Source: a virus. From it: DNA of 64,000 nucleotides. Below, in pieces: positions 1,667-54,362 of this stretch. The stretch lies in the UHGV virus genome UHGV-0084588. One strand, written 5' to 3'. Each line of letters starts with the position of its first letter. Positions within the stretch are counted from its first letter, which is position 1. The notes under the pieces were generated by a model. It did not search any database. It saw only the letters and a program-made list of their open reading frames with translations, and was not told where the DNA came from. Both the position numbers and the translations under genes were made by a program.

Positions 1667-1675
1667 TGTATAAAG

Positions 1676-1748
1676 ACCATTGAAGTTAGAGGAATTAACA
1701 CCCGACTAATAATCGGTTATTTCGCAGGTTCGAATCCTGTCATTGGTC
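1676..1748 (+). tRNA. tRNA-like element (73 nt), anticodon loop cu-AAU-aa, identity uncertain
   Basis: Canonical T-arm gcagg-TTCGAAT-cctgt, 7-bp acceptor stem with one U-U mismatch, D-stem gtta/taac with GG in loop; atypical A8 and weak anticodon stem. Confidence 0.45.
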
Positions 1749-2384
1749 TCCCGAATTAGAGCAGTCGTACAGTGGGTAGATTTTCCCGTCAGCCTTCAAC
1801 TGAGATACGTCTGCTCTGATAACTTCTGCTCTTGCTCACGGGTAGAAAGCTCCTTAAAAACGTGTAAACACCTACCGATTAAGTTCGGACTTACGTTTAG
1901 GGCCGTAGGGTCCTGGTAGCACGACTACCGAAACGGTTGTACGGTGGGAGGATATCCTCCCACCTGCATCCATCAAGAATTTAATTATTGGGTTTTCCCC
2001 TAAGTGTAACGTGAATACCCTGTAATGTGAATTGAGAGTTACGTGTTAACTCGACGGTACCGGTCGTTGATTTTTTAGTAAACCTTCATCGTCCCATGTC
2101 TGCTGCATTTGGCTGGTACTGAACTTTGTCGCTAAGCCTGGTGAGGTGGCTACACACCGAGGCTGGGGCTCGACACCCGTTAGCGGCACCCTTTTTGCGT
2201 TATTGTCAGTATTCTGAAGCTGTGTTCAGTGACAATAGCGTTTTTTATTCGCGTTGGCGTTTGTACCATTGCTGCCACTGCCTGCTGCGCCTCAACAAAC
2301 GGTCAACGCGTCCCACTAACCCACACGTCGGGGTATAGCGACGTACAACAGAACGAGTAGTAGTAACAGAACGAGGTAACAGAA
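1749..2384 (+). other. structured non-coding region with multiple hairpins
   Basis: No ORF with RBS; perfect hairpin ggtgggagg-atat-cctcccacc (1945-1966); tattgtcag...ctgacaata stem (2201-2238). Confidence 0.35.
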
Positions 2385-5584: not shown

Positions 5585-5597
5585 TAGATATTATCTT
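5585..5597 (+). promoter_or_regulatory. palindromic TAGATATTATCT motif (candidate promoter/operator)
   Basis: Same motif family as 13388, 13468 and 27097; 33 bp upstream of CDS 5630. Confidence 0.4.
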
Positions 5598-12026: not shown

Positions 12027-12171
12027 GATTAATTCGATCCCGTGTAACGAGCGTTGGTTCCGACTGAAGCCCGTTGTCAATTTCGAAATCTATTACGATG
12101 ATCCGTTAAACGGGTGGTTAGCACACGTAACCGGACAGAATGTTTTTGTCATGGGATACGAATTACGGTAA
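11980..12171 (+). CDS. small hypothetical ORF (63 aa), doubtful
   Basis: Overlaps the acidic tail coding region of the upstream gene; no clear RBS. Confidence 0.2.
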   Translation: MTKKTMTKKRFLTTNEINSIPCNERWFRLKPVVNFEIYYDDPLNGWLAHVTGQNVFVMGYELR

Positions 12172-12258
12172 AAAGAAAGTAAACGTTGCACCAAAGTGCA
12201 ACGTTTTAACTCTATTATATGGGGATTCGAAAGAATCCTCAGCGGGGGAGAGTAAGTC

Positions 12259-13320
12259 TTAATTTTCTAATGCTTGATATAATGGTAAAATTAACTCGTG
12301 TCGGTAATAGTTTCTAGCCGACCGTGTAAGTTTTTCCAATATCTTCGCATCTTCGAATCTGGCTATACGCACCATTAAATTGGATTTGTATTTGCTCATG
12401 CTCGAGTTGTCGAACTGTAAGCAGAACAACGCCCAATACCAGTTCACGATGTTTCGATGCCAACTACCTTGAATGGTTGAGCCTGGGTCTTTAAAAAGGA
12501 TACGGTCTACCGCAGTGGTAGGGTGTGTCGGATCATCAAAGAACTGTGGAATGTGTGCCATGACCACACCAGGTAAAGGTTTACCTGCACGGAGTGCTTT
12601 ACAAACTTGCGTTGCGTGTTTAATTGAAAGTTCACGCAAAGGCGGTGTAGGAACAACACGAAGTGGCGTTTCGGGTTCGACTTCTTTACCTGTTGCGACA
12701 GCGCGATGAATATTTAAAAAAGCGATATTCATGTAGCTAGGTAGCATACGGTAAATGATGTGTCGTTGCGCGTAAACTACACGGTTAATCGGTTCGGGTT
12801 GTGTTCTGTAATATTGTTCTGCAAGAACATATTGCCAAAGTAACGCAACCAGATTGATTTCGATAATACTGATGCCTCGGGGTTTGCCGTTCCCGAGACC
12901 CCAGTTAAGATTCGTGTACTCGTGATAAAGATAAACTGCAGGTGTGTAGTCACGAAAAGACAGTTCAGGATCAATAGGACGTGCGACGAGTGAAATAATC
13001 TCATCTTGCCCTTCGATAAAGATCCCGTTGAAAACTTGACCATACTCCCCCACAGAAGTTAGGTGTAGCGCATTACCGATATCGGAAAGCTTGCGTCGAC
13101 ATGCCCACTCGATCTCTTCGTAGCTGGGTTCACCCGCATATCCGATAGCCGCTAAGATTTTGAGTACCAGATGGCCTGAAACAACACGGGTTTGAATGGA
13201 CTCTAAATAGTTGCGAATGCGCTGATTATTATTTTTTACGGCACTGACCAATTGTATAGCGGAAGGGTCTTCGAATTTACCCTTTATGGCTGCTTGGTTT
13301 AACTCGGCTTGACTGAACAT
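12259..13320 (-). CDS. hypothetical protein (353 aa)
   Basis: Minus-strand ORF with aaggag RBS; divergent from the 13529 gene. Confidence 0.6.
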   Translation of the reverse strand: MFSQAELNQAAIKGKFEDPSAIQLVSAVKNNNQRIRNYLESIQTRVVSGHLVLKILAAIGYAGEPSYEEIEWACRRKLSDIGNALHLTSVGEYGQVFNGIFIEGQDEIISLVARPIDPELSFRDYTPAVYLYHEYTNLNWGLGNGKPRGISIIEINLVALLWQYVLAEQYYRTQPEPINRVVYAQRHIIYRMLPSYMNIAFLNIHRAVATGKEVEPETPLRVVPTPPLRELSIKHATQVCKALRAGKPLPGVVMAHIPQFFDDPTHPTTAVDRILFKDPGSTIQGSWHRNIVNWYWALFCLQFDNSSMSKYKSNLMVRIARFEDAKILEKLTRSARNYYRHELILPLYQALEN

Positions 13321-13374
13321 GACTTACTCCTTGGGGTTACACATAGGAAACGGTCACAGTCTAACTCACATTGA

Positions 13375-13405
13375 AAAATATCTTAGCTAGATATTATCTA
13401 TGTGA
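13375..13405 (+). repeat. 31-bp direct repeat copy 1 containing palindromic TAGATATTATCTA
   Basis: aaaatatcttagctagatattatctatgtga, near-identical to 13455-13485. Confidence 0.8.
13388..13400. promoter_or_regulatory. candidate promoter/operator TAGATATTATCTA (perfect 6-bp inverted repeat with 1-bp spacer)
   Basis: Palindrome TAGATA-T-TATCTA in divergent intergenic region. Confidence 0.45.
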
Positions 13406-13454
13406 TGGTTCGGTAGTTAATCATTTTAAGCTATGTGTGTTTTACGTGTATTCT

Positions 13455-13485
13455 AAAATATCTTAGCTAGATATTATCTACGTGA
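13455..13485 (+). repeat. 31-bp direct repeat copy 2 containing palindromic TAGATATTATCTA
   Basis: aaaatatcttagctagatattatctacgtga, one mismatch to copy 1; 44 bp upstream of ATG 13529. Confidence 0.8.
13468..13480. promoter_or_regulatory. candidate promoter/operator TAGATATTATCTA, second copy
   Basis: Identical palindrome about 48 bp upstream of the codon-optimised gene 13529. Confidence 0.45.
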
Positions 13486-13528
13486 ACCAACACTACAATT
13501 GTATTAAACCTTATAAGGATTAAGTAAA

Positions 13529-15376
13529 ATGGCTAAAGAGTTTATTGACAATCAAAACGACGTTGTGACTGGTGCTGCTGGTTCTGCTGCAGATCCAATT
13601 CCGTCTTTCGGTGGCGCGGGAGCTGCTACTGTGGATAATACCAATGCGGCCAACGCTTTTGGTGGGATGTCTAAAAACATCTCCACTTTCGATAAAGCTT
13701 TCGGATACATGTCTTTCGTGTCCACTGCTTCTCAGTTCACTAGCCTGATTGAGAAGATGGCGGAGAAGAACACATACCTGCGTAACTTCCGTTGGGGTGT
13801 CATTGACGGCATCAACTCTGAAATGGGTTCTGCTGCATACGTGGCTGGTCCGTCCGGCGATAACCATAACGAATGGCTCTACGGCATCCTGTTCTTTGAA
13901 CATGGCCAGTCCATCCGTTTCTACGAAATCAACGGTAAAGAAAACTACTACACCCTGGCGCAGCTGTTCAGTCAAGAAGGTGTGATGAACAACATCACTA
14001 ACCAGATTGCAACTCAACACAATCTGCCGAGCGTACAGTTCATGGTAATGAACTGCGTACCGGAACTGGGTAAAACCATGAACGAAGAATGGGCTAACCA
14101 GCTCATGGGCCAGATTGCACTGGGTATCTTCGGTCGTCATTCTGGCTACCTGGGCTACCTGAAAATGACCCGTTCTGATCGCTTCACCGCGCAAGTTAGC
14201 GTAGTTGAAGAAGGTTCTGTAACTGACGTTAACGGTTCCGCACAGCGTGCTGACCTGATGGTTGTGGTTGACCATACTCGTACCGGCAACAACGATAATA
14301 ACCCGACGCTGTTCTCTTCTGAACGCCTCCAGAATTATCCGAGCGTTGCAGGTGTTGGTTACATCAACCTCCGCCATAAAGGTAAACCTCAGACTCTGAC
14401 CAACGGTACTCAGGACCTGCGTCAGCTGGAAGCCGAAGTGGTTGTTTCCCTGATGGATTCTCAGTCCTCTGGGGCAATGGCACCTATCGAGCGTCAGCTG
14501 ATTGAACTGGCCGCGTTCGCACAAATCGCCACTATCGGTGGCTGGCGTGAACGTTTCATGCAGTCGCTGAACAAAACCGATCGCCGCTTCTCCCGCGTTC
14601 TGGAGTATGTAGAATGGGGCAGCGAAAAACCTGACCTGAGCAAAATCGACGGTAACCGTGAAGTTATCGAGAAATGCCTGGACACCTTCGCTAACCCGAC
14701 TGCAGCTCTGGTGGTGAACCATCGTGCAGGTAACGGTATCGGTGGTCTGTCTACTCTCCTGAGCGAAATCGGGATGGGTAACACCAACGCACTGTACACC
14801 CTGTTCAACATCCTGGATAACATGGCCAGCAACGGTGCGACTAAGTTCAGCACTCGCTTCAAAGCACTGCTGGGCAATGTCACCAACTTCGAGTGCAAAC
14901 ACGTTGTTATTGCCGGTTGCCCGACCATCTCTGGCCAGTATTTCAGCAACAGCCAGAAACGTAGCTTCCAGGATATGGACTTGGTTTCCGCTCTGACTAA
15001 AGTGGGTGACAACCAACGCGATGCGATCGACTACATCAGTGCACAGTCCTACTCTCACCGCTATCTGAATGCGCGTGACCAGCGTCTGTACCTGCTGAAA
15101 ATGGCTGCGTCCATGTTCGGTAGCAAACAGCCGCAGGTAACGGGTGAAGCGTCTGACCTGGCGATCAATCCGTTGTTTGGTAAGGCACTGGTGGAATACA
15201 TCACCGAAAACTGCAACTTCCAGGTGAACGGTGTTACCGCAGCGAACAGCCTCACTCACTCTGTGTTTGTTAACACGGGTAATGAGAACTTCGCTCTGTC
15301 TGGTAGCGGTCCTAACGCATTTGGTAGCGATTTCGGTATGTCCTTCGCTGCAACTGACTGGCGTCCGACTTTCTAA
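13529..15376 (+). CDS. abundant 615-aa protein; candidate phage nuclear-shell (chimallin-like) protein, alternatively a major capsid protein
   Basis: Strong bias to E. coli-type optimal codons; tandem promoter repeats upstream; strong terminator downstream; lies directly upstream of the RNAP beta-prime N-terminal gene, which from memory matches the phiKZ gp54-gp55 arrangement. Confidence 0.45.
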   Translation: MAKEFIDNQNDVVTGAAGSAADPIPSFGGAGAATVDNTNAANAFGGMSKNISTFDKAFGYMSFVSTASQFTSLIEKMAEKNTYLRNFRWGVIDGINSEMGSAAYVAGPSGDNHNEWLYGILFFEHGQSIRFYEINGKENYYTLAQLFSQEGVMNNITNQIATQHNLPSVQFMVMNCVPELGKTMNEEWANQLMGQIALGIFGRHSGYLGYLKMTRSDRFTAQVSVVEEGSVTDVNGSAQRADLMVVVDHTRTGNNDNNPTLFSSERLQNYPSVAGVGYINLRHKGKPQTLTNGTQDLRQLEAEVVVSLMDSQSSGAMAPIERQLIELAAFAQIATIGGWRERFMQSLNKTDRRFSRVLEYVEWGSEKPDLSKIDGNREVIEKCLDTFANPTAALVVNHRAGNGIGGLSTLLSEIGMGNTNALYTLFNILDNMASNGATKFSTRFKALLGNVTNFECKHVVIAGCPTISGQYFSNSQKRSFQDMDLVSALTKVGDNQRDAIDYISAQSYSHRYLNARDQRLYLLKMAASMFGSKQPQVTGEASDLAINPLFGKALVEYITENCNFQVNGVTAANSLTHSVFVNTGNENFALSGSGPNAFGSDFGMSFAATDWRPTF

Positions 15377-15403
15377 TAAGTTGGTAAGTAGTAAGCAGTA
15401 GTT

Positions 15404-15447
15404 GAGGGACAGGGGAAAACCCCCTGTCCCTTCCCTCTCTTTTTTTG
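15404..15447 (+). terminator. rho-independent terminator
   Basis: hairpin gagggacagggg-aaaa-cccctgtccc followed by T-run. Confidence 0.7.
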
Positions 15448-15460
15448 TTGAGGATTCGGC

Positions 15461-16828
15461 GTGGAACATAAACTAGAATATTACGGGATTTCAGGGCGAC
15501 TAATTAGTCACGATAAAATGCTACGTGACTGTATACAAGAAGCGGAGGAAAAAGGCTACAAACCCCCGATTATTATCAATGACGTTGCTGCAACGATGGA
15601 TACCATCGAAGCGTCAGAGATGATTAACCAAATACTTCAAAACCGAATCGTTGATGAAACACTCAACTCGGCTCCTATTTGCAGTCTGACCTGCGAATCA
15701 CCTATTACCCATCGTTATAATCTTGGGTTACGTTGCCCACATTGTGGTCATGTTGTTTCTGAACATCGGATTACGTCCGAAGTTTGGCTACGTGCACCCG
15801 ATGAGATAGGTAACTTTATCAATCCACGTTTTTGGTCTCTCTTTAATGCTTTCTTTGGCTCTAAGCTGAAAAAATTTAATCGTAACAAAGTGACGGTAGA
15901 GCGTGGTTCTGATTTGCTGCTATGGCTAATCGATCCGTACTACCATCCAGAAAAGGACGAAGGAACACGTGCTCGTGTGGTGAAAAGAATCCTCAGCGAA
16001 CATGGTTTCGAACGGGGAATTCGAAACTTTATCGACCACCATCGAACCGTCTTTAATATCCTTACGTCCCCGGAAGCTTGGAAGGAGATTTATCCACCGA
16101 CGAAAAACAACCGTTATGAGAGTGAACGCGTACGCTTAGAATGGCGTGAGTTCTTTCAGGAACAATCGTTCTCATTCTTTCCAAGACACCTTCCGATTAT
16201 TTCATCGAAACTGATCGTTACAGAGGAGCGCCGACAAGGTATCTTTATCGATCCCGTTTACACCAGTGCCATCGATGCAGTAAAAAATGTGGCGTTGTTG
16301 TACACGAATGCACGTCGTATCGAACCACGATTTATTATTCGTCGCGCGATCAAAGCGAATCGACAACTTGCGTATTTCTATATTGACCATCGTCAGGAAG
16401 TGATGGAAGGTAAACCTGGGTTCTATCGGGCAAAACTCGGGTCAACGCACGTACCGTGGGGCGGACGTGTGACTATCTCTCCTATCTCTGAACCTCACGA
16501 TGCGTTGAAAGTTATTGCGCCTTGGCGTTGGTTAGTTCCGTTGGCGAGTGTTCACATTGAGAACAAGTTAGGTCGACGTGACTACACACCTCGACAGTGT
16601 GAACGAATTATTGCATTCGCGGCAATGCAGTATGTACCGTTGGTACATGAAATTATTAATGAGCTGATTAAAGAATCCCCCGGCGGATTCGGTTTAATGT
16701 TGGAAGTTCTACGTAACCCAACATTGGTTCAGCTTTCTATTCAGACATTGTTTATCTCGGCGGTACTGACAGATGTAACACAATGTTCTCTGCGTATTTC
16801 TGATCGCGTCATCAAAGCACCTAATGCT
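15461..16828 (+). CDS. RNA polymerase beta-prime-like subunit, N-terminal fragment, exon 1
   Basis: Zn-ribbon C-x4-C...C-x2-CG; GKPGFYRAKLG...GGRVTISP matches [41 protein letters not shown] matches NRAPTLHRLGIQAF; ends ...KAPNA where bacterial beta-prime has YNA|DFDGD; GTG start. Confidence 0.75.
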
Positions 16829-17178
16829 AAATACTGGCCCACTAGACGGGAAACCTCTAGTGCGTATCCCTCGAATTGCTGGGAACTCCTAAAGCTTACG
16901 ATCCCGACAGGGTGGCGAAAGTCAGAAACAATTCGTAAGATAGCCTATGCTAACCAATAATGCTAAGGGTTGAGATAATGGATAACCAGCAGCGATGAAA
17001 ATCGTTCAACGACTATCGAAAGGGTAAAACCGAGTAGAGTAGCTGCTTAGTTTAGCGGCGAAGTGGGGGAGACCTACGGGTAGCAATACCTACGGTTATG
17101 ATATAGTCTGTGCCCATGTGAAAGCATGGGAGGGTGTCATTGCACACCTGCTCCAAAAGGAATGGGGTGGACAAACAG
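16829..17178 (+). ncRNA. group I self-splicing intron (350 nt, no internal ORF) interrupting the NADFDGD motif
   Basis: Exon 1 ends in U and intron ends in G; joining gives ...APNA-DFDGDQ...; core-like elements (consensus from memory): P aattgctgggaa (16874-16885), Q aaccagcagc (16984-16993), R gttcaacgacta (17004-17015), S gatatagtc (about 17100-17108). Confidence 0.75.
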
Positions 17179-17418
17179 GATTTCGATGGCGATCAGTTAC
17201 AATGCAGATTGGCAATCGACCAGATTGAAATGGAACTGGGCATGGCTTATCGTCCAGACAACGGGTTTATGTCAAGCACGAATGTGGATGAGGTTTCGAG
17301 CTGCATGATTCTCCATAACGAGAACATCAGCAACATAAACCGTTTCTTCCAGGATACTGAAGAGGACCTGGAGGCCGGTATCGCGCTTGACTCGGAATTA
17401 TTAAAAATGGCGGGGTAA
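17179..17418 (+). CDS. RNA polymerase beta-prime-like subunit, N-terminal fragment, exon 2
   Basis: Begins DFDGDQ...; ...MSSTN matches bacterial ...MMSTNN; same frame as ORF 17134..17418, whose apparent GTG start has no spaced RBS. Confidence 0.7.
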   Translation, partial: DFDGDQLQCRLAIDQIEMELGMAYRPDNGFMSSTNVDEVSSCMILHNENISNINRFFQDTEEDLEAGIALDSELLKMAG

Positions 17419-17424
17419 TGAAAC

Positions 17425-18012
17425 ATGGGCATGTGGAACTTAGGCGGAACCATCTGGACGCGACAAACTGAAAATAGTGGGATGTATCGCTATTTCAGAG
17501 ACAATTTCGATATTAACGCCTTTGCTCCTGACATGATCGAAAGCGTTAAACGAAAATGTAATGAGTTAATTTCATTAGAGCGTTTCCGTGAGATGTATGC
17601 AGCCGCACGCAAAGTACAGCACAGCGATGCGACTGACGTTGTACGACAATTGGAGAAGATAGGACAATTCCAGTTTGCAAACGCAACCTTACAGCCGTTG
17701 CTAATGGCAATGCCGGAATATCGACAATTGTACAATAACAACATGGCGACCGGTTATGAAAACGGGTATTCGAAAATCGATAACTTCCGTGGTTCGGCGT
17801 ATATGCATACGGACGATAACTTCCGCGAAGTAACGTCGGGTATGTCCAACGAGTACGATGAAGATCGTATTTGGAACTGGGTATCCAACGAAGATCGATC
17901 CAACAAACTCACTCGTGTAGAGCAAGTTGACATGCAAATCAACTGGGCACGTATGCGGAATTTTGATTGGGAAGACGAAGATCCGTGTTCTGAACTCGGC
18001 GCTTCGTGTTAA
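17425..18012 (+). CDS. hypothetical protein (195 aa)
   Basis: ATG 6 nt after upstream stop; terminator downstream. Confidence 0.55.
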   Translation: MGMWNLGGTIWTRQTENSGMYRYFRDNFDINAFAPDMIESVKRKCNELISLERFREMYAAARKVQHSDATDVVRQLEKIGQFQFANATLQPLLMAMPEYRQLYNNNMATGYENGYSKIDNFRGSAYMHTDDNFREVTSGMSNEYDEDRIWNWVSNEDRSNKLTRVEQVDMQINWARMRNFDWEDEDPCSELGASC

Positions 18013-18018
18013 TCGAAA

Positions 18019-18050
18019 AGAAGGGGATTGGGCACCCCCTTCTTTTTTCT
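18019..18050 (+). terminator. rho-independent terminator
   Basis: hairpin gaagggg-attgggcac-ccccttc followed by TTTTTT. Confidence 0.6.
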
Positions 18051-18089
18051 TATTTACAGCAGCAGCTATCAATGTGATAGGAGTAGTAA

Positions 18090-18473
18090 ATGGCGATTGC
18101 AGTAGGCACGGTTTCTACACGCGGCTGGGCAAAAACGCCCCGCGAACGTATTCGTGAGATGATGAATCATTACACGGAAGCAGGGTATAGCCAATCGCAA
18201 ATTTATCAAGGTAATGTCCGGTCACTTGCGAAAGCGAAGCAAATGTTTGCTCAAGATCCCGACGGCTTAGCCAATCGGGTGAAAACAGACTTAACTACGC
18301 TTTACGAACATATTTTTCCTGAAGGGGTTGAAGTAGAGACAACCTGGGAATATTTACCGGATACCGATGTACGCTATCGTATCATTATCCAAGCTCGCGT
18401 TATGTCGGGTGGGGTGTGGTATGATGTGGAACGATATGTTGAAACTGAAACATCAGTTATTGAGGATGAGTAA
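18090..18473 (+). CDS. hypothetical protein (127 aa)
   Basis: ATG with taggag RBS. Confidence 0.6.
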   Translation: MAIAVGTVSTRGWAKTPRERIREMMNHYTEAGYSQSQIYQGNVRSLAKAKQMFAQDPDGLANRVKTDLTTLYEHIFPEGVEVETTWEYLPDTDVRYRIIIQARVMSGGVWYDVERYVETETSVIEDE

Positions 18474-18475
18474 GG

Positions 18476-19144
18476 ATGGATCAAGAACCGGGAAAATTTA
18501 ATGGGGTGCCCATTGAAGAACTTTCTGGCCGTGCTAAGTTTGAGTTTGAGAAACTTCTTGAAATGGAAGAGATGCTTAAACAGGGCCAGGGTGTGTGCAG
18601 CGTGTTTACTGAATCGATGTTCCGTCGACAAGGTTTACCGCTGTTGTCGGGGATGCTGGATGGTACGTTTAACGAAGATACCTGGACGGATTATGTAGGG
18701 AGCGCTTTCGTTCCGTTACAGATTGTTTCGGATTCGGATAATTCAAAACTGCTCTTTACGATCCCGCCTCTGCTTAATACCGGTCGGTCACTTCAACATG
18801 TTGACGGTCAGCCATCGCTCACCGAAGAAACAGAGATGATTCGCCAGCAAGCCGATATCATTTCCGAGGTCGGTGAACGGCAGATGTATCAGATGATCGA
18901 TTATACGCTGGATGGTATCGAACAGTTATCGTACGAAGAAAATGCACTTCGTGCAAAACAGGTTATCGATCTGTTAAACTGGATCTTCCGTCGTTATAAC
19001 GTATCAGGGCAATTACCTTATCCTGAAGGACTTGAAGAATTGTGCAACCGTATCCAAGGACGAAAGAAACCTGCAACGGCGGCACAACCTGAACAGTCCT
19101 CCCCTGCTAAGGGAAGAAGAATCATCGATGAAGAGGATTACTAA
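18476..19144 (+). CDS. hypothetical protein (222 aa)
   Basis: ATG with taagg RBS immediately after upstream stop. Confidence 0.55.
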   Translation: MDQEPGKFNGVPIEELSGRAKFEFEKLLEMEEMLKQGQGVCSVFTESMFRRQGLPLLSGMLDGTFNEDTWTDYVGSAFVPLQIVSDSDNSKLLFTIPPLLNTGRSLQHVDGQPSLTEETEMIRQQADIISEVGERQMYQMIDYTLDGIEQLSYEENALRAKQVIDLLNWIFRRYNVSGQLPYPEGLEELCNRIQGRKKPATAAQPEQSSPAKGRRIIDEEDY

Positions 19145-20276
19145 TCCGCCACCGAAACCAGTTGGCGTCAAACGCATTTTCTCAACGGGCGATGTACATT
19201 TACTGCACCGTCGTGTACCGACGTGGCATATTGTTAACGTGCTCAAGGAAACCTTAGAACGGTTCGATAATACGATTGACGCTATTTATATAGCTGGCGA
19301 TTTATTTGATGATTCCCGGCATTTGCGGCAAGAAGATTCTCAAGAAGCCATAGGGTTTTTAACCTGGTTATTGCTCTGGGCCAAACAGACGAATACCGCT
19401 ATTCGTGTCTTGGAAGGAACACCCTCCCACGATCATAAACAATCGAAAATCGTTGAAGAGTTAAATCAGGCGGTGAGTGCAGATTGTTTGTATCTGGATA
19501 AGATTGGGGTGTTTTACGACGAGGCGTTAGGAGCGACTATCGGTTGGGTCCAGGACGAGTATAAAGCCCTGGGTTCTGAGTCTATTGATGCTGCCGCAAC
19601 AGAACAGGAAATGGCTGAATTATTAGCCACGCGCGGTATACAGCAGATGGATTTCTGCTTTATGCATGGCTGCTTTCAGTTCCAAGTTCCCGTTGAGTCT
19701 ACCCGCTTTTTCCATACAGATTTTTGGGAACCGTTAGTCAAGCATTTGATTATCATCCACCACGATCATCGTAGGAAACAATTGGGTAAGATTCGTGTAC
19801 CAGGCAGCCCCGATCGCCTGGCAATGGGTGAAGAAGAGGACAAAGGCTTTGCTATTGTCGATTTCACTCCTGATTTAGCCAGGGATTATTTCTTGGTTAA
19901 TGAACGCGCTTGCCCGCAGGTTAAAATTGCTGCGGAGGAGGACTACGAATCGCAGTACGCGAAATGTCTCTCTGCGCTTGAGTATATTGATACTCATCCG
20001 TCCTCGGTAATAGGACGATTGGAAATTGAATATTATCCCGATTCTCCATTGGCGGAAGCCATTACTCGGTGGAAATCGCAATATTCATTCCATATTTCAG
20101 GTACGCGTATACGTACGCCTGAAGAGGAGCAAATTCTCGCAGCCGGTTTTGCTATCGACGCAGAGGTCGAGGAAACCATCTCTGAAGAGAATGTTGAAGC
20201 GATTTTGTTAGAAGCATTAGTGCCGTTTAAATACGATGCACAAATTGTCACTGACATTATCAGGAGCATCAAATGA
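19128..20276 (+). CDS. calcineurin-like metallophosphoesterase, Mre11/SbcD-like nuclease candidate
   Basis: Motifs GDVHLL (D-x-H), AGDLFDD (GDxxD), GTPSHD (GNHD-like) in canonical order; start taken at in-frame ATG 19128. Confidence 0.5.
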   Translation: MKRITNPPPKPVGVKRIFSTGDVHLLHRRVPTWHIVNVLKETLERFDNTIDAIYIAGDLFDDSRHLRQEDSQEAIGFLTWLLLWAKQTNTAIRVLEGTPSHDHKQSKIVEELNQAVSADCLYLDKIGVFYDEALGATIGWVQDEYKALGSESIDAAATEQEMAELLATRGIQQMDFCFMHGCFQFQVPVESTRFFHTDFWEPLVKHLIIIHHDHRRKQLGKIRVPGSPDRLAMGEEEDKGFAIVDFTPDLARDYFLVNERACPQVKIAAEEDYESQYAKCLSALEYIDTHPSSVIGRLEIEYYPDSPLAEAITRWKSQYSFHISGTRIRTPEEEQILAAGFAIDAEVEETISEENVEAILLEALVPFKYDAQIVTDIIRSIK

Positions 20277-21109
20277 CCCCAATCAGTGTTGATCGCACGT
20301 TTGGGTTTTATCAAATGTCAATTGCTACATCGTTGGCTTTTGAAGGGCTTCTCCATGAAGGAGAATATGCCGATTGGAAGGGTCCTGTCCCTATCCACAA
20401 GTATCAGGATATTTACCTGAATCTACGGACGTTGTTCCGTAACGCGTTTTACGCGTTTGAAACGAATCGTGAACGATTAACACCTGAAGTGTTGCTGGCA
20501 TCGATTGAAGAAGATATTGCTTCTATTAACGCTACCGCGAAAGCGGTAGCGCCTTCGGTGCTATGTGTCCCCTATATCTGTACGTATAAAAGTGCGAACA
20601 GAGTCTTTCCAGAAGCAGCGTTCCGTACGATCGCAGGCGGGCAGGAAAAGATGACACCTAACCAGCATCACTTTAATGCGTTAGAACACGATACGTTAAA
20701 GTTATACGGTGAAAAATATCCTGAACAATTCAAAAGCTTTGATGTGTTTCCGAAAGGACAGCACGACACGTTGATTTTAACCCATTACCCTGCCGATCTG
20801 CTGGCCTACAAAGATTTCCCGCTGTTGAATTTGTTAGAATCACACACGGGGAAAATTAAAGGTCGGTTAGAATGGTACACGAAGCTTTACGGTAAACCCG
20901 AACAGATCCCGTTTAACAAAGCGTTCCTAACGCTATTTGGCGATGGGTATATGTTCTCCCCACTTGACAGAAAGGTTCGTAAGGTGGTGTTGAATACTGC
21001 CGAGAAATACCACTGGCGACAAGATACGACCATGGATCGTATTTACAGTTGCTTGAAGTTGGTTAACGAACCCTTTGTCATTGAGTTCCTTCGTAGATTG
21101 TCTCGCTAA
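20273..21109 (+). CDS. hypothetical protein (278 aa)
   Basis: ATGA overlap with upstream gene; caggag RBS. Confidence 0.55.
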   Translation: MTPISVDRTFGFYQMSIATSLAFEGLLHEGEYADWKGPVPIHKYQDIYLNLRTLFRNAFYAFETNRERLTPEVLLASIEEDIASINATAKAVAPSVLCVPYICTYKSANRVFPEAAFRTIAGGQEKMTPNQHHFNALEHDTLKLYGEKYPEQFKSFDVFPKGQHDTLILTHYPADLLAYKDFPLLNLLESHTGKIKGRLEWYTKLYGKPEQIPFNKAFLTLFGDGYMFSPLDRKVRKVVLNTAEKYHWRQDTTMDRIYSCLKLVNEPFVIEFLRRLSR

Positions 21110-21167
21110 TTTTACAGATCGTTTTGTTAGTTTGAGCACTCCGAAAATGTAAAAATAGGATAAGTAA

Positions 21168-21812
21168 ATGGTCAATAAAAACTTCCTTAAAGAGAAATGG
21201 CTTTACCCACAGACTGAGCCGGATCAACAGGGCCGTACCCGTAAACTGGGCATTGAATTGAACGAATTCAATGGTGATGTGGAACTGATGAAATTCCACT
21301 ACTCCTTTGGTAAAGGCGAAGGTCTTTATTTCACCGCAGGCTATACTGTTTGCGTTGATATCTTTGAAACCCTGCGTACGGTGATGCAGAAACCCGAAAA
21401 AGTCGTTTTCAAATGGGAAGATGCAAAAGGTAAGAAGGCACCGGTTAGCTTACACGTAGGTCGTGATGAAAACCTGACACCGTTCTTTGCACTGAGCGGC
21501 GAGATCCCAGGGGTTGGTGCGCGTCAGAAGAAATTCTATTTCACTTATCCGAAAGGTTATCGTGTTTTCCGTAATGGACAACTGGTCTCCGATCTGGAAC
21601 TGGCAGAGCGTCAACTACGCGCGTTCCTGAAAAATGCGGATGTATTCCTGGAAGATTTCCGTGACAACTACAAACCGCGCGAGTTTAATAACGCGGGTGG
21701 TGGTAGTTACGGTCGCGGAGGTTACAATAACGGCGGCAATGGCGGCGGTTATAACAACCAGTCTGGTGCAAAAGCCCCAACACCAACTAACGATTTTGAC
21801 GATATTATTTAA
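21168..21812 (+). CDS. putative ssDNA-binding protein, or nucleic-acid-binding protein with an RGG/Gly-Tyr low-complexity linker
   Basis: C-terminal Gly-rich linker GGGSYGRGGYNNGGNGGGYNN and acidic tip NDFDDII resembling E. coli SSB tail DFDDDIPF; strongly optimised codons. Confidence 0.4.
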   Translation: MVNKNFLKEKWLYPQTEPDQQGRTRKLGIELNEFNGDVELMKFHYSFGKGEGLYFTAGYTVCVDIFETLRTVMQKPEKVVFKWEDAKGKKAPVSLHVGRDENLTPFFALSGEIPGVGARQKKFYFTYPKGYRVFRNGQLVSDLELAERQLRAFLKNADVFLEDFRDNYKPREFNNAGGGSYGRGGYNNGGNGGGYNNQSGAKAPTPTNDFDDII

Positions 21813-21831: not shown

Positions 21832-21862
21832 TAGCCCCAGGATATCCTGGGGCTCTTTATCG
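21832..21862 (+). terminator. terminator-like hairpin
   Basis: agccccagg-atat-cctggggct followed by a short T-rich stretch. Confidence 0.5.
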
Positions 21863-21894
21863 TGTATGTGTGTAGAATACAGTCGAAGTTATCT

Positions 21895-21911
21895 GAGATA
21901 GATTTTATCTT
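21895..21911 (+). promoter_or_regulatory. candidate promoter/operator, TAGAT-TTT-ATCT palindromic variant
   Basis: gagatagattttatctt about 35 bp upstream of ATG 21946. Confidence 0.3.
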
Positions 21912-21945
21912 AGTGCACGACTATGCTATTCCTGGAGATTTTAAA

Positions 21946-23574
21946 ATGCGTATTGAAAAGAATCGTGACCGTTTAGTGATAAAATACGGTGAAAAGGAGG
22001 TCGCGTTTAATGGTTTCCGAAACGGACGTAAAGACGTGAATGTGCCAGACGTACGCGATAGTTTCGGACAGATCGTAACGCATGATAAAATCATGTTCAT
22101 GGAAATCGATCGTTATTGGTCAACTTTAACGCCCGAAGAGAAAAGCGAACTGTTTTCAGTTTACGAAGAATTAGAGTTGTTAGCTAATGAACCCCCAGAA
22201 GTTATTCGTGAACACGTTCCCACACTCGTCGCGAGAATTGCTAAATTTCATCACGCAGATAGATTCCGCCAGCTTTATCCACACGGCTCGGTGTGGATTC
22301 CTCAAAACGTCCACGAAACGTACGAAGAGATGTCGTCGAATTATCCAAAAGAGATGACGTATATTGTACAAGATTATTACGAACTGGTGATTTTGTCTTT
22401 GATGACAAAACCGTTTATTCCAGTATTCTTGATTTTGGACGCTTTTCCTGCAACACGTGCTTCTGTTGAGTCGAAGCGCAAAAGTGTTTATAACCTGACC
22501 TACTGCATGGAGCTATTGTCGGATACCGAGATTGCCACGCTGCCTGCCATTACAAAGTTGCGTGAGTTTTTAGTGTCGGTGATTTCGAAAGTTCAAGACG
22601 GGGGCAGTAAAGGACCCAATACTGCAAATCTTACCGTCCTGGCATCTATCTGCGGCTACGGCACGGATATGGTAGAGGAATACATCGTAGCGTTCGCTGT
22701 TATCCGTTTAATTGCGATGAAGTTAATCGGTGCCGAGCTACCACCGGGTACGATGGTTGAAAACAACATCGTGGCGGGAATGTATTTCAATATTCGACAA
22801 GAAATTGAAACTGGCTTCGCGGGAAAAATTTCCGGTCAAAACGTGATGCTAAAAGCGAATCCTGAGAAAATCATGTTCAACGGCGAGAAGGGGAAAACTT
22901 CGTCGATTGACTTGGTTCAGGCTCGGACTAAAGCACCGATGAAAGAATTCGTTCGTACCCAAGAATTCTTTAATGACTACCGTCGTGCGGTGCGTGCTTT
23001 GAATCTCGATATTGCTCCCGCAGATGTGAAAGTGCTGATAGATTCTATCAACATTAATCATCAGTATCCGTTCTACGAACTCTACGAATGGTTGGTGGCG
23101 GCAGTGATGCACCGATTTGCAGATCGTCGTACATACAAGGAAATCGACTCGGAAGCATTTAAGAACGCGATGGGTATATCCCAAGCCGTTTACATCTATT
23201 ACGGAATGCCTGAGATTGCGCAGCTGTTAAGTTGTGAGATGATCCGGGCACCGCTAAATGGCGGGTATCCTATCGAACCGATCGATAATGAGATTAAAAT
23301 AAAAACGGATAGATATTATCCACAGGCATACCGTAAGCATCGTAATACTTACGAACAGTCAACGTTGAAGGATTCTCTCAGCTTGTTGGTTCGTGAGCAT
23401 ATTGCACCGTTCAACTTCAATCTCAGGGCAACACCGGAAGCAGCCAGAATGTTACGGTGTGGGACAGTGATGTTGGACTATTCGCCTCATCCGCGACTTC
23501 AGAACATGTTAGCAGAATTTCTGTTAATTCAAAACAGAAAGAAATGTGAAGAAGTGGCATGGTTTAATCAATAA
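21946..23574 (+). CDS. hypothetical protein (about 542 aa)
   Basis: ATG at 21946 with ggag RBS, chosen over ORF-track start 21862. Confidence 0.5.
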   Translation: MRIEKNRDRLVIKYGEKEVAFNGFRNGRKDVNVPDVRDSFGQIVTHDKIMFMEIDRYWSTLTPEEKSELFSVYEELELLANEPPEVIREHVPTLVARIAKFHHADRFRQLYPHGSVWIPQNVHETYEEMSSNYPKEMTYIVQDYYELVILSLMTKPFIPVFLILDAFPATRASVESKRKSVYNLTYCMELLSDTEIATLPAITKLREFLVSVISKVQDGGSKGPNTANLTVLASICGYGTDMVEEYIVAFAVIRLIAMKLIGAELPPGTMVENNIVAGMYFNIRQEIETGFAGKISGQNVMLKANPEKIMFNGEKGKTSSIDLVQARTKAPMKEFVRTQEFFNDYRRAVRALNLDIAPADVKVLIDSININHQYPFYELYEWLVAAVMHRFADRRTYKEIDSEAFKNAMGISQAVYIYYGMPEIAQLLSCEMIRAPLNGGYPIEPIDNEIKIKTDRYYPQAYRKHRNTYEQSTLKDSLSLLVREHIAPFNFNLRATPEAARMLRCGTVMLDYSPHPRLQNMLAEFLLIQNRKKCEEVAWFNQ

Positions 23575-51579: not shown

Positions 51580-51610
51580 GGGGGCCCCTCATTCTAGGGG
51601 CGTGTAATTG

Positions 51611-51622
51611 GGTTATATAACC
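51611..51622. promoter_or_regulatory. perfect 12-bp palindrome GGTTATATAACC (candidate promoter/operator)
   Basis: 17 bp upstream of ATG 51639; AT core TATATAAC resembles the TATATTAC element. Confidence 0.3.
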
Positions 51623-51638
51623 AAAGGAAATAAACGAA

Positions 51639-52910
51639 ATGGCAAATTTCGCAAAAACTCGCGCCGCTCGTGAATCGATGGAAGCGGCCGATGAAGTAAT
51701 CGACGGTATCAGCAACGTTGAACCGGCAGAAGAGAACCTGGACGTCCAACTTGCGGACGTTGCATCTATCGACGGTCAGCTCGATCAGCTGGAAACCGAC
51801 GGTGAAACCCTGGCTGCCGATACCGAGCGTACTGAAGACGCTATCGAACAGGCGGAAGAAGCCGTTGCTAACGGTGAAGAAATGCCGGAAGAAGCGGTTG
51901 CCCTGCACGAAGTGGCACAGGAATCCATCGCACGTCGTTGGTGCCTGGAACGTACTAAACTGGCTCGCGAATCCTATCGTCGTGGTCGTGGTATGACTGC
52001 TGCTGCCCAGGAAGGTTGGAAAGAAACCCTGAAAGATCTTTACGATCGTTTCATTCAGTTCTGTAAAGAAGTGATTGCGAAGATCAAAGACCTGAAACTG
52101 AAATATTTCAACGTCGGTAAGACTGCACAGAAACGTGCGAAGAAATATCAGGAAATGCTGCGTAAGCTGGGCAAACAGAAGAAAGATGAGATCTCCGGTG
52201 GCTTTATCACCAAGCTGTCCATCGAAGGTAAATTCGATGCTGCTGGCTCCATCGCTATTGCGAAAGAAGTTACCGCTGGTAAAGCTAAAGGTTCCATCAG
52301 TGTTCTGGAAAAACAAGCTGGCGAAGCTGTAACTGCTGTTGCCAAAGGTGACGATGACGCATTCAAAGCGATGCGTGGCGATCAGCCGGTAGAACTGTTT
52401 GGTAAAGCTGCGTCTAAACTGCGCTCTCTGCCGAACTTTGAAAAAGGTGATGCGTCTAAACTGCTGGCTCTGCCGGGTAACGCATACGTCCAGGCTGGTA
52501 CTAAAGAACTGGCTGGCGGCCACAAGTTCACCGCAATTGCATTCATGAGCACTGGCGACGCTTCTGACGATAAAGACGTGAAAACTCCGTCTGTTTCTGA
52601 AATGGCTGGTGCTGCTTCTGCTCTGGAAGCGATCGGTAAAGGCTTCGAAGCTGTACTGAAAGATTTCCGTGCTTATGACGCCGAAATCGTGAAGCTGCAA
52701 CAGGCTGCTGAGAAAGCTGCTAACGCGCTGAACAACGAAAAAGACGAAAGCAAATGGGATGGCCTGCGTAACGCACGTCAAGCTGCTGATTGGTCTGTTA
52801 AGAACTACCAGACCCTGAACCGCGCCGTTAGCTATGTTGCTAACACCGTTATTAGCGGTCTGAACGGCTACCTGGGTGCTGGTATCGGTGCTTACGAAAA
52901 GTCTAAATAA
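51639..52910 (+). CDS. abundant acidic protein, paralog A (423 aa); function unknown
   Basis: Strongly optimised codons; shares N-terminus MANF..ARESME, internal RKLGKQKKDEISGGFI and C-terminus GLNGYLGAGIGAYEKSK with 52993. Confidence 0.65.
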   Translation: MANFAKTRAARESMEAADEVIDGISNVEPAEENLDVQLADVASIDGQLDQLETDGETLAADTERTEDAIEQAEEAVANGEEMPEEAVALHEVAQESIARRWCLERTKLARESYRRGRGMTAAAQEGWKETLKDLYDRFIQFCKEVIAKIKDLKLKYFNVGKTAQKRAKKYQEMLRKLGKQKKDEISGGFITKLSIEGKFDAAGSIAIAKEVTAGKAKGSISVLEKQAGEAVTAVAKGDDDAFKAMRGDQPVELFGKAASKLRSLPNFEKGDASKLLALPGNAYVQAGTKELAGGHKFTAIAFMSTGDASDDKDVKTPSVSEMAGAASALEAIGKGFEAVLKDFRAYDAEIVKLQQAAEKAANALNNEKDESKWDGLRNARQAADWSVKNYQTLNRAVSYVANTVISGLNGYLGAGIGAYEKSK

Positions 52911-54335: not shown

Positions 54336-54362
54336 TTTCAGATATATATTACCTAGGTGAGA
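54336..54362 (+). promoter_or_regulatory. candidate strong phage promoter, 27-mer TTTCAGATATATATTACCTAGGTGAGA
   Basis: Identical 27-mer at 62590-62616; contains TATATTAC; about 50 bp upstream of ATG 54413. Confidence 0.55.

Follow-up and report, generated by a model that had tools for sequence, protein, structure and literature searches.

A probable chimallin gene behind two candidate early promoters in a jumbo phage genome of the Asesino/SPN3US branch

Introduction

Chimallin (ChmA) is a jumbo-phage protein that is assembled into a nucleus-like shell around the phage DNA. Its lattice is square, with a spacing of roughly 11.5-13.5 nm, and the phages counted as chimalliviruses are those whose genomes carry two multisubunit RNA polymerases. 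The closest described systems to the locus reported here are found in the phages Asesino and SPN3US. GFP-tagged Asesino gp039 was seen to form a ring that surrounds the phage DNA (PMC11724907). For SPN3US, gp244 has been described as a diverged homologue of chimallin, to which the 13.5-nm square lattice observed in lysates of this phage was linked (PMC9365700). The solved chimallins used for comparison were 201phi2-1 gp105 (7SQQ-7SQS, 8IGG), Goslar gp189 (7SQT-7SQV) and phiPA3 PhuN (8FNE). According to the literature, the GNAT catalytic residues are missing from the published chimallins.

Here we describe an ORF from a 64,000-nucleotide stretch of the virus genome UHGV-0084588, called the window below. 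We put the probability at about 93% that this ORF encodes chimallin, the principal protein of the phage nucleus, in a jumbo phage of the Asesino/SPN3US branch of the Chimalliviridae.

Results

Gene order and coding sequence

The locus is built up as follows:

12259..13320, minus strand: conserved divergent neighbour, 353 aa, phrog_3938, recognised by homology to Asesino gp38
13516..13520, plus strand: Shine-Dalgarno AAGGA, 8 nt 5' of the chmA ATG, read from the sequence
13529..15376, plus strand: chmA coding sequence (probable chimallin, major phage-nucleus shell protein), 615 aa
15461..17418, plus strand: non-virion RNA polymerase (nvRNAP) beta'-N gene, phrog_2987, E 2e-158
15461-16828, plus strand: exon 1 of the nvRNAP beta'-N gene
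16829-17178, plus strand: group I intron of the nvRNAP beta'-N gene
17179-17418, plus strand: exon 2 of the nvRNAP beta'-N gene

The ORF starts with ATG and encodes a protein of 67.2 kDa with a pI of 5.5. Its best match in a deposited phage is Asesino gp039 (52.7% identity over 91% of the length by tblastn), and SPN3US gp244 (ACQ60_gp244) is about 51% identical over 92%. As in the window, the Asesino gene has the gp38 homologue upstream and the nvRNAP beta'1 gene (gp040) downstream, and the synteny of SPN3US, a phage of a different genus, is identical. By position as well as by sequence, the two genes are orthologues of the ORF. About half of the residues differ from those of Asesino, and the N-terminal tails cannot be aligned. 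The 353-aa neighbour is 69% identical to Asesino gp38 and 61% to its SPN3US equivalent; its similarity to Goslar gp190, which occupies the same position, is weak (24% over 164 aa).

The nvRNAP beta'-N gene, 62-68% identical to its relatives, lies directly downstream of the ORF, as had been proposed. The order of chmA followed by nvRNAP beta'-N is common to KEN19, PCH45, Goslar, SPN3US and Asesino. The phiKZ gp54/gp55-type arrangement, which the original prediction had named, was found again in a phiKZ-like genome, where a gene annotated as 'nuclear shell protein' immediately precedes that of nvRNAP beta', and likewise in Goslar (gp189/gp188). Further RNAP beta-type genes are located at about 26.7-33 kb of the window, and together with chmA beside nvRNAP beta'-N they give the genomic setting of a chimallivirus.

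A 350-nt group I intron (Rfam RF00028, 61.4 bits), which the original prediction had not noticed, splits the NADFDGD motif of the nvRNAP beta'-N gene. The junction (VIKAPNA/DFDGDQ) was fixed by the intron-less allele L004, and the corresponding gene of Asesino has no intron.

The AAGGA sequence upstream of chmA is the same in all 5 aligned upstream regions, and among 14 relatives M1 is invariant and K3 nearly invariant. The codon bias of the gene is high (Fop 0.79, Nc 35.7; rank 2 in the window). The claim that it is the most codon-optimised long gene is correct for the window ORFs of more than 450 aa but not overall, since the 423-aa internal-head-protein gene (51639-52910) exceeds it (Fop 0.805, Nc 31.4). 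In comparison with a near-identical metagenome allele, 26 synonymous and 2 non-synonymous differences were counted; both amino-acid differences from L004 (S19A, M47I) sit in the N-terminal tail, and the metagenome protein P0001 is identical to the window protein at 613 of its 615 residues.

Relatives and predicted fold of the protein

The tblastn matches came from 62 phage genomes, all of them SPN3US- or Asesino-like, with a single place in each genome. Megablast of the chmA locus against deposited phages gave no match, and when 24 kb (9000-33000) was used, patches of about 72-76% DNA identity were obtained, none of them over chmA. The Pfam scan of the ORF returned no match, only a sub-threshold Cellsynth_D; PF25677 is listed for three relatives in a precomputed table, which the local Pfam scan did not reproduce. 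The PHROG match of the ORF is 8316, labelled 'unknown function', and is not a head family.

Neither phmmer with the single ORF nor a 14-sequence family profile retrieved anything relevant from the PDB sequences, and pairwise BLASTP against the Goslar, KEN19 and PCH45 chimallins yielded noise only. By hhalign the family and these three chimallins were collinear over 375 columns, but weakly (E 0.012, probability 3.5%). The failure of such shallow searches fits the figure of roughly 10% identity given in the literature. A deeper, 29-sequence profile (A5), run against all PDB sequences, matched chimallins only: phiPA3 PhuN with an E-value of 4.2e-15 and 201phi2-1 with 4.4e-5 and 4.9e-5. The 201phi2-1 alignments run nearly end to end and the PhuN alignment stops short of the C-terminal tail. 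In a search of 1.8 billion proteins, bridging sequences were found that match both the family of the window protein and Goslar gp189.

In the second AF2 model of the protein (pLDDT 79.9, pTM 0.82, core near 90) two domains could be distinguished, flanked by tails in which the following segments were delimited:

13529..13678, plus strand: disordered Ala/Gly/Asn-rich N-terminal tail, residues 1-50, bearing PSFGG and NAFGG
13679..13720, plus strand: putative NTS, residues 51-64 (ISTFDKAFGYMSFV), from conservation and profile alignment
13721..14203, plus strand: predicted N-terminal alpha/beta domain of the core, residues 65-225
14204..15229, plus strand: predicted C-terminal GNAT-like domain of the core, residues 226-567
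15251..15304, plus strand: putative CTS1, residues 575-592 (LTHSVFVNTGNENFALSG), candidate inter-tetramer docking segment
15320..15373, plus strand: putative CTS2, residues 598-615 (FGSDFGMSFAATDWRPTF), bearing the C-terminal FG motifs

The predicted two-domain core (N-terminal alpha/beta and GNAT-like C-terminal) superposes on the solved chimallins. The best 9 Foldseek matches in the PDB were all chimallins (E 1.9e-21 to 1e-17, target-normalised TM 0.67-0.73), and the next match had an E-value of 0.14. Identity to the solved chimallins in the structural alignments is 13-16%, a relationship that pairwise search does not detect. The sequence and structure comparisons that the original prediction had recommended, namely the A5 profile against the PDB and Foldseek with the predicted fold, thus both led to chimallins only. 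The HK97 capsid fold, named there as the outcome that would speak against a shell protein, was absent among the listed structural matches of both models.

Since single-sequence and shallow-profile links to the solved chimallins are absent, the protein is assigned to the family by its fold, by the deeper profile and by the Asesino orthologue. Asesino/SPN3US orthology, the deep profile, the predicted fold and synteny all agree with the chimallin-like identity suggested earlier.

Terminal segments and FG motifs

The N-terminal tail has a pLDDT of 31-41 and a column conservation of 0.36, as against 0.64-0.71 in the core; 201phi2-1 chimallin does not need the corresponding tail (residues 1-47) to be incorporated into the shell (PMC9365700). 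The three segments next to or beyond the core (51-64, 575-592 and 598-615) are conserved, yet disordered or of low confidence in the monomer model. In the putative NTS, 93% of the relatives have F58 and 86% have G59, and the profile alignment places the segment approximately opposite the NTS region of 201phi2-1 (native residues 48-61). Residues 575-592 show the highest conservation outside the core (0.80) and align approximately with the CTS1 region of 201phi2-1. Residues 598-615, with the family consensus GSDFGLGV...SF.L and a conservation of 0.53, were aligned to the C-terminal end of the 201phi2-1 chimallin. By analogy with the solved lattices, the NTS would dock within the tetramer and the CTS segments between tetramers.

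The FG-type strings quoted in the original prediction are all present at the termini, and FG dipeptides are in excess in the 615 residues (8 observed, 3.1 expected, shuffle p about 0.007). They do not make up a nucleoporin-like feature, being few and mostly unconserved. Only 2 are found in the 50-residue N-terminal tail (PSFGG and NAFGG), both common solely to the window protein and its closest relative, and this pair is restricted to the lineage of the window when compared with Asesino. The conserved positions are FG58 in the putative NTS, FG201 in the folded core and F550, also in the core. A nucleoporin-like FG-repeat barrier protein was ruled out on FG count and conservation. The conserved FG motifs of the tails appear to fall in segments which align, approximately, with the lattice-forming NTS and CTS of the solved chimallins.

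Upstream repeat and downstream terminator

The ORF is preceded by two direct copies of a repeat and followed by a hairpin:

13370..13405, plus strand: candidate early (virion-RNAP type) promoter copy 1, consisting of an A-tract, the AGCTAGATATTATC core and GTGA
13450..13485, plus strand: candidate early promoter copy 2, assigned on the same basis, with its start 80 nt after that of copy 1
15404..15447, plus strand: intrinsic terminator with a 12-bp GC-rich stem, 5-nt loop and T-rich tail, found by scan

The repeat is exact over 26 nt (13375-13400 and 13455-13480), for which no match was obtained in any shuffle, and extends to 36 nt at 92% identity (13370-13405 and 13450-13485). It had been described as a tandem 31-bp repeat; since the start-to-start spacing is 80 nt, the copies are dispersed and not tandem, and the length of the unit has to be corrected as well. 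Both copies fit the predicted early-promoter consensus published for N1M2, OBP, 201phi2-1 and phiKZ (PMC7058600, Table 2). When up to one mismatch was allowed, AGNTAKATATTAYC was found at 8 sites in the window (0.19 expected), all on the plus strand and all oriented with the downstream genes, and a candidate early-promoter consensus of the clade could be written as an A-tract, AGnTA(G/T)ATATTA(T/C)C and GTGA. A scan for sigma-70 promoters gave fewer sites than in shuffled sequences and none that was well placed, so host-type promoters do not explain the expression of the gene. The repeat is thus best read as two copies of the chimallivirus early (virion-RNAP) promoter, whose use and timing we infer from the sequence. 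Since the early motif sits about 10 nt upstream of the transcription start (PMC7598289, PMC11512511), transcription would start near 13402-13405 from copy 1 and near 13482-13485 from copy 2, the latter giving a 5' UTR of about 45 nt.

In Asesino, SPN3US and L003 both promoter copies before chmA are kept, while the stretch that separates them is not conserved in Asesino and SPN3US; the dual motif is thus common to the window, Asesino, SPN3US and the 71% relative of the window. In contrast to the two copies of the window, Goslar and the phiKZ-like KEN19 have a single one, 79 nt 5' of the chmA ATG.

The hairpin (15404-15432) has 8 GC pairs in its 12-bp stem and is followed by a T-rich tail to about 15447. 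Its predicted folding energy is -27 kcal/mol (z -4.0), and none of 200 shuffled sequences was as stable. L003, Asesino and SPN3US have retained the hairpin, and the substitutions in its stem appear, as read by eye, to be paired. The strong terminator postulated after the ORF is present.

Discussion

That the ORF encodes the major capsid protein with an HK97 fold, abundant and hence codon-optimised, is a reading to which we give practically no credence. It agrees with the size and the strong codon bias of the gene only, whereas the predicted fold matches solved chimallins and nothing else; it was rejected on the fold, and the PHROG match is not that of a head protein. Very improbable, too, is a paralogue that has the chimallin fold but serves another purpose, for example as a minor constituent of the shell or as an active enzyme or toxin of the GNAT type. 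A paralogue would be hard to reconcile with the single place per genome seen in 62 of the 62 relatives, with the syntenic chmA position of the ORF beside nvRNAP beta'-N and with the shell ring formed by the Asesino orthologue. Against an enzymatic role stand the absence of a Pfam acetyltransferase match and, as far as the residues of the published proteins go, the lack of the GNAT catalytic residues in them. The window protein differs from GNAT toxins of the kind of E. coli AtaT in having no acetyltransferase signature at the sequence level; its GNAT-like domain is part of a probable lattice protein and is unlikely to be a member of the AtaT-type family.

As regards the upstream repeat, instead of two promoters the duplicated palindrome could also represent the operator of a regulator that binds DNA as a dimer, or a site of recombination or replication. 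TAGATA-T-TATCTA is indeed a perfect 6-1-6 palindrome, as had been noted, and its presence in both copies has the classic look of a repressor operator. However, the other motif sites in the window are not palindromic (TAGATATTATCCA, TATATATTACCTA) and retain the asymmetric flanks, the A-tract upstream and GTGA downstream, in the orientation of the downstream genes. The palindrome therefore looks incidental. In addition, the motif matches the consensus predicted before early genes of related jumbo phages, and Goslar and the phiKZ-like phage have the non-palindromic TATATTAC version before chmA. We consider the operator unlikely and retain the early-promoter assignment.

On the chimallin reading, the core of the protein would consist of an N-terminal alpha/beta domain and a catalytically dead-looking GNAT-like domain, as in the homologous 201phi2-1 and Goslar proteins. 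The N-terminal segment around FDKAFGY would join the cores into tetramers, and two C-terminal segments (NSxFxNxGxExFxLSG and GSDFGxxx) would link the tetramers into a flexible square lattice. By analogy with its relatives the protein is expected to localise to the shell, a single layer that would enclose the replicating phage DNA and exclude host nucleases. The virion RNA polymerase, which enters together with the DNA, would initiate at the two early promoters 80 nt apart, and the chmA mRNA would be monocistronic, with a strong Shine-Dalgarno sequence and host-optimal codons, and would end at the strong intrinsic terminator. Because promoters, Shine-Dalgarno sequence, codons and terminator occur together, early and very abundant synthesis of chimallin may be supposed.

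Two further ideas are put forward as doubtful ones: that the dual promoter is an adaptation of the clade and not a redundancy and, separately, that the FG-bearing N-terminal tail contacts import/export factors. Two virion-RNAP start sites might raise or stage the chimallin output, for example in phages without a PhuZ spindle such as Asesino. The lineage-specific tail, which is the sole part that differs between near-identical alleles, might make its contacts at the shell surface.

The assignment leaves the knowledge of the phage nucleus itself unchanged and is an ordinary addition to the known chimallin family. With the chimallin call, the window can be attributed to a jumbo phage that forms a nucleus and to which none of the deposited phage genomes is close, the best protein identity being 53% and the DNA patches 72-76%. 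It gives a confident chmA annotation for a family of 'unknown function' in PHROGs that is unmatched by Pfam. The early-promoter consensus of the clade can be used for the annotation of early genes, and a pair of early promoters upstream of chmA has been retained in at least three genera.

The chmA gene codes for a chimallin

The chmA product belongs to the already known family of chimallins (ChmA), and we put the probability that it is the principal protein of the phage-nucleus shell at about 0.93.

13529-15376 (+): chmA ORF, ATG start, 615 aa, 67.2 kDa, pI 5.5, from the sequence

The Pfam scan of the product gave no match, phmmer against the PDB returned nothing, and PHROG 8316, which it matches with E 1e-232, is labelled 'unknown function'. 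PF25677 is given in a precomputed table for three relatives (P0004, P0010 and P0012); with the local Pfam copy it was reproduced neither for these nor for the chmA product. By tblastn exactly one locus per genome was found in 62 deposited phages, all of them SPN3US- or Asesino-like enterobacterial jumbo phages. The top match was gp39 of Erwinia phage Asesino (52.7% identity, 91% of the query), and SPN3US ACQ60_gp244 was approx. 51% identical; both are annotated as 'hypothetical protein'. The Asesino ChmA homologue is gp039, and a GFP-gp039 ring surrounds the DAPI-bright DNA (PMC11724907). SPN3US gp244, approx. 10% identical to the 201phi2-1 chimallin, has been named as a diverged homologue of the chimallins (PMC9365700).

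The link to the chimallins was detected neither by a 14-sequence profile against the PDB nor by pairwise BLASTP against the Goslar, KEN19 and PCH45 chimallins, and hhalign of the family against the same three gave E 0.012, which was counted as a failure. A profile search of 1.8 billion proteins yielded 24 matches, typically of 580-655 aa, and distant representatives were added to the alignment. Against 177,635 PDB sequences the 29-sequence profile found chimallins only (PhuN, E 4.2e-15; 201phi2-1, E 4.4e-5 and 4.9e-5), the 201phi2-1 alignments spanning the N-terminal segment through the C-terminal tail. Intermediate sequences match Goslar gp189 as well as the family of the chmA ORF.

A first AlphaFold2 model, built on the 14-sequence alignment, was of mediocre quality (pLDDT 62) and even so matched chimallins only. 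With the enlarged alignment pLDDT rose to 79.9 (pTM 0.82), with a core (approx. residues 64-573) near 90 and disorder at residues 1-50, 59-63 and 574-600. Foldseek against the PDB gave nine matches below E 0.001, all chimallins (201phi2-1, Goslar and phiPA3 PhuN; E 1.9e-21 to 1e-17, target-normalised TM 0.67-0.73), and the tenth match had only E 0.14. The original prediction had kept a major capsid protein as the alternative, with a predicted HK97 fold set beforehand as an outcome that would refute the shell gene. Since HK97-fold proteins are absent among the listed Foldseek matches, the capsid protein was ruled out. The chimallin-like shell gene that was predicted is borne out by the orthology to Asesino gp39, the 29-sequence profile and the chimallin-only Foldseek matches.

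Reading frame, codon usage and terminator

13520-15469 (-): antisense ORF, 649 aa, overlapping all of chmA
51639-52910 (+): internal head protein homologue, 423 aa (phrog_2497, E 1e-147), top codon bias in the window (Fop 0.805, Nc 31.4)
15404-15432 (+): intrinsic terminator, 12-bp stem then T-rich tail, fold -27 kcal/mol, z -4.0

The start codon of chmA is supported by the alignment with 14 relatives, in which M1 is invariant and K3 nearly so; a Shine-Dalgarno AAGGA is placed 8 nt before the ATG. Since homology is found on the plus strand only, the antisense ORF was treated as a shadow of chmA; it is most likely no gene in its own right but the stop-free mirror of one with strong codon bias. 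The bias is indeed high (Fop 0.79, Nc 35.7), but chmA, which had been called the most codon-optimised long gene, ranks second in the window, after the internal head protein gene; it comes first only among ORFs of more than 450 aa. The latter is likewise shadowed by a long antisense ORF (51594-52781). The strong terminator described after chmA is present, and its hairpin is also kept in Asesino and SPN3US, with stem substitutions that, read by eye, are apparently paired.

FG motifs and the terminal tails

Every FG string quoted for the termini is present, and the product holds 8 FG dipeptides versus 3.1 expected (p ~0.007). PSFGG and NAFGG belong to the N-tail, which is disordered and poorly conserved, and only the closest relative has them too; no support was seen for a nucleoporin-like FG barrier. 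The near-identical metagenome allele differs by 26 synonymous changes and two amino acids, S19A and M47I, both in the N-tail. The conserved tail motifs are FDxAFG (residues 54-59), NSLFxNxGxExFxLSG (~574-592) and GSDFG (~599-603), and the profile alignment places them roughly at the NTS, CTS1 and CTS2 tail segments of the 201phi2-1 chimallin, which dock on neighbour protomers and are required for self-assembly in vitro (PMC9365700). Because of this correspondence, we infer that the FG-bearing termini may serve lattice formation.

Putative early promoters upstream of chmA

13375-13400 and 13455-13480 (+): direct repeat copies, 26 nt exact, 80 nt apart
3190, 13385, 13465, 21896, 23307, 27094, 54340 and 62594 (+): starts of AGNTAKATATTAYC sites, motif scan

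The repeat extends to 36 nt at 92% identity; with copies standing 80 nt apart it is not the tandem repeat that had been described. Its element (A-tract, TCTTAGCTAGATATTATCTA, GTGA) agrees with the predicted early-promoter consensus of related jumbo phages, namely TBYAWWWWWTTTCARRYAKATATTATYWAAGTGWA in N1M2, similar ones in OBP and 201phi2-1, and TATATTAC in phiKZ (PMC7058600 Table 2). In these phages early promoters, marked by an AT-rich motif of ~10 nt centred near -10, are attributed to the virion RNA polymerase, vRNAP (PMC7598289; PMC11512511).

With at most one mismatch AGNTAKATATTAYC occurs at 8 sites in the window, all on the plus strand, versus 0.19 expected; most lie directly 5' of plus-strand genes, and 23307 falls within the listed ORF 21862-23574. 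The motif across the sites reads AGnTA(G/T)ATATTA(T/C)C. A weaker site lies near 5585 (+), and those at 54340 and 62594 have in common a longer identical form, TTTCAGATATATATTACCTAGGTGAGA. The 21896 site points to a start of ORF 21862-23574 further downstream than listed; in L003, a 71% relative, 542 aa are called versus 570 aa here.

Both copies before chmA are kept in Asesino, SPN3US and L003, the second copy in L003 having the variant core TATATGTTATC, while the spacer between them differs from genus to genus. In Goslar and in the phiKZ-like genome there is one copy, 79 nt 5' of the chmA ATG. The TAGATA-T-TATCTA palindrome does belong to the repeat, as described, but it is absent from the other motif sites of the window; an operator was therefore set aside and we read the palindrome as probably incidental to the promoter core. 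For the promoter part alone, we consider it quite likely that the repeat represents two vRNAP promoters; by analogy, the start sites for chmA would lie near 13403 and 13483.

Gene neighbourhood and the intron of the polymerase gene

12259-13320 (-): divergent neighbour of chmA, 353 aa, phrog_3938 (unknown function), conserved position
16829-17178 (+): group I intron, 350 nt, in the nvRNAP beta'-N gene 15461-17418 (Rfam RF00028, 61.4 bits)

Directly 3' of chmA lies the gene of the non-virion RNA polymerase (nvRNAP) beta'-N (phrog_2987, E 2e-158); Asesino gp040 is nvRNAP beta'1 (PMC11724907). The suggested phiKZ gp54/gp55-type arrangement is real: the same order is found in PCH45, SPN3US, Asesino, Goslar (gp189 then gp188) and the phiKZ-like genome, in which 'nuclear shell protein' is the annotation of the first gene of the pair. 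The divergent phrog_3938 gene forms a conserved pair with chmA, being in the same place in Asesino (69%), SPN3US (61%) and, weakly, Goslar (gp190, 24% over 164 aa).

For the polymerase gene, ORF callers give a 499-aa ORF and a fragment of 94 aa (83 aa in L003). The metagenome contig L004, aligned with window 12052-21501, has no intron and an uninterrupted 533-aa ORF. This allele defines the splice junction: U is the last base of the 5' exon and G that of the intron, and splicing would give VIKAPNA|DFDGDQ, which places the insertion within the catalytic NADFDGD motif. Since L004 is near-identical (97.9% DNA identity on one side, 99.6% on the other) and the exon flanks of the insertion site are identical, the comparison indicates that the intron was recently gained or precisely lost between the two alleles. 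L003 carries a related intron in or at its RNAP-subunit gene, and so do several SPN3US-like phages (SaP7, Proteus phage 7, EC001, JN03 and Lh1B), where the introns are ~70% identical and the RNAP-subunit genes annotated as such. In Goslar the equivalent gene is gp188, and the annotation directly 3' of it shows an Intron_gpI feature and a NUMOD1/HNH-domain gene. The intron belongs to a mobile type that is already known, and no homing-endonuclease ORF lies inside it.

Elsewhere in the window, ARAGORN calls a tRNA-Ile gene with anticodon AAT at 1675-1751 (+), where the Rfam tRNA call is modest (38.3 bits); this anticodon is unusual in bacteria and phages.

Proposed role of ChmA

The phage itself is undescribed: deposited genomes reach DNA identities of at most ~76% even in the best-matching patches, and the closest sequences are the 9.1-kb ENA metagenome contig L004 (~98-99.6% DNA identity) and a Logan contig (71% ChmA identity). 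The conserved dual early promoter before chmA is a modest new detail. In the mechanism that we propose, the two vRNAP promoters would cause ChmA to be made early and in abundance, its molecules would swap tails to form a flexible square lattice, and this lattice would shield the phage DNA during replication.
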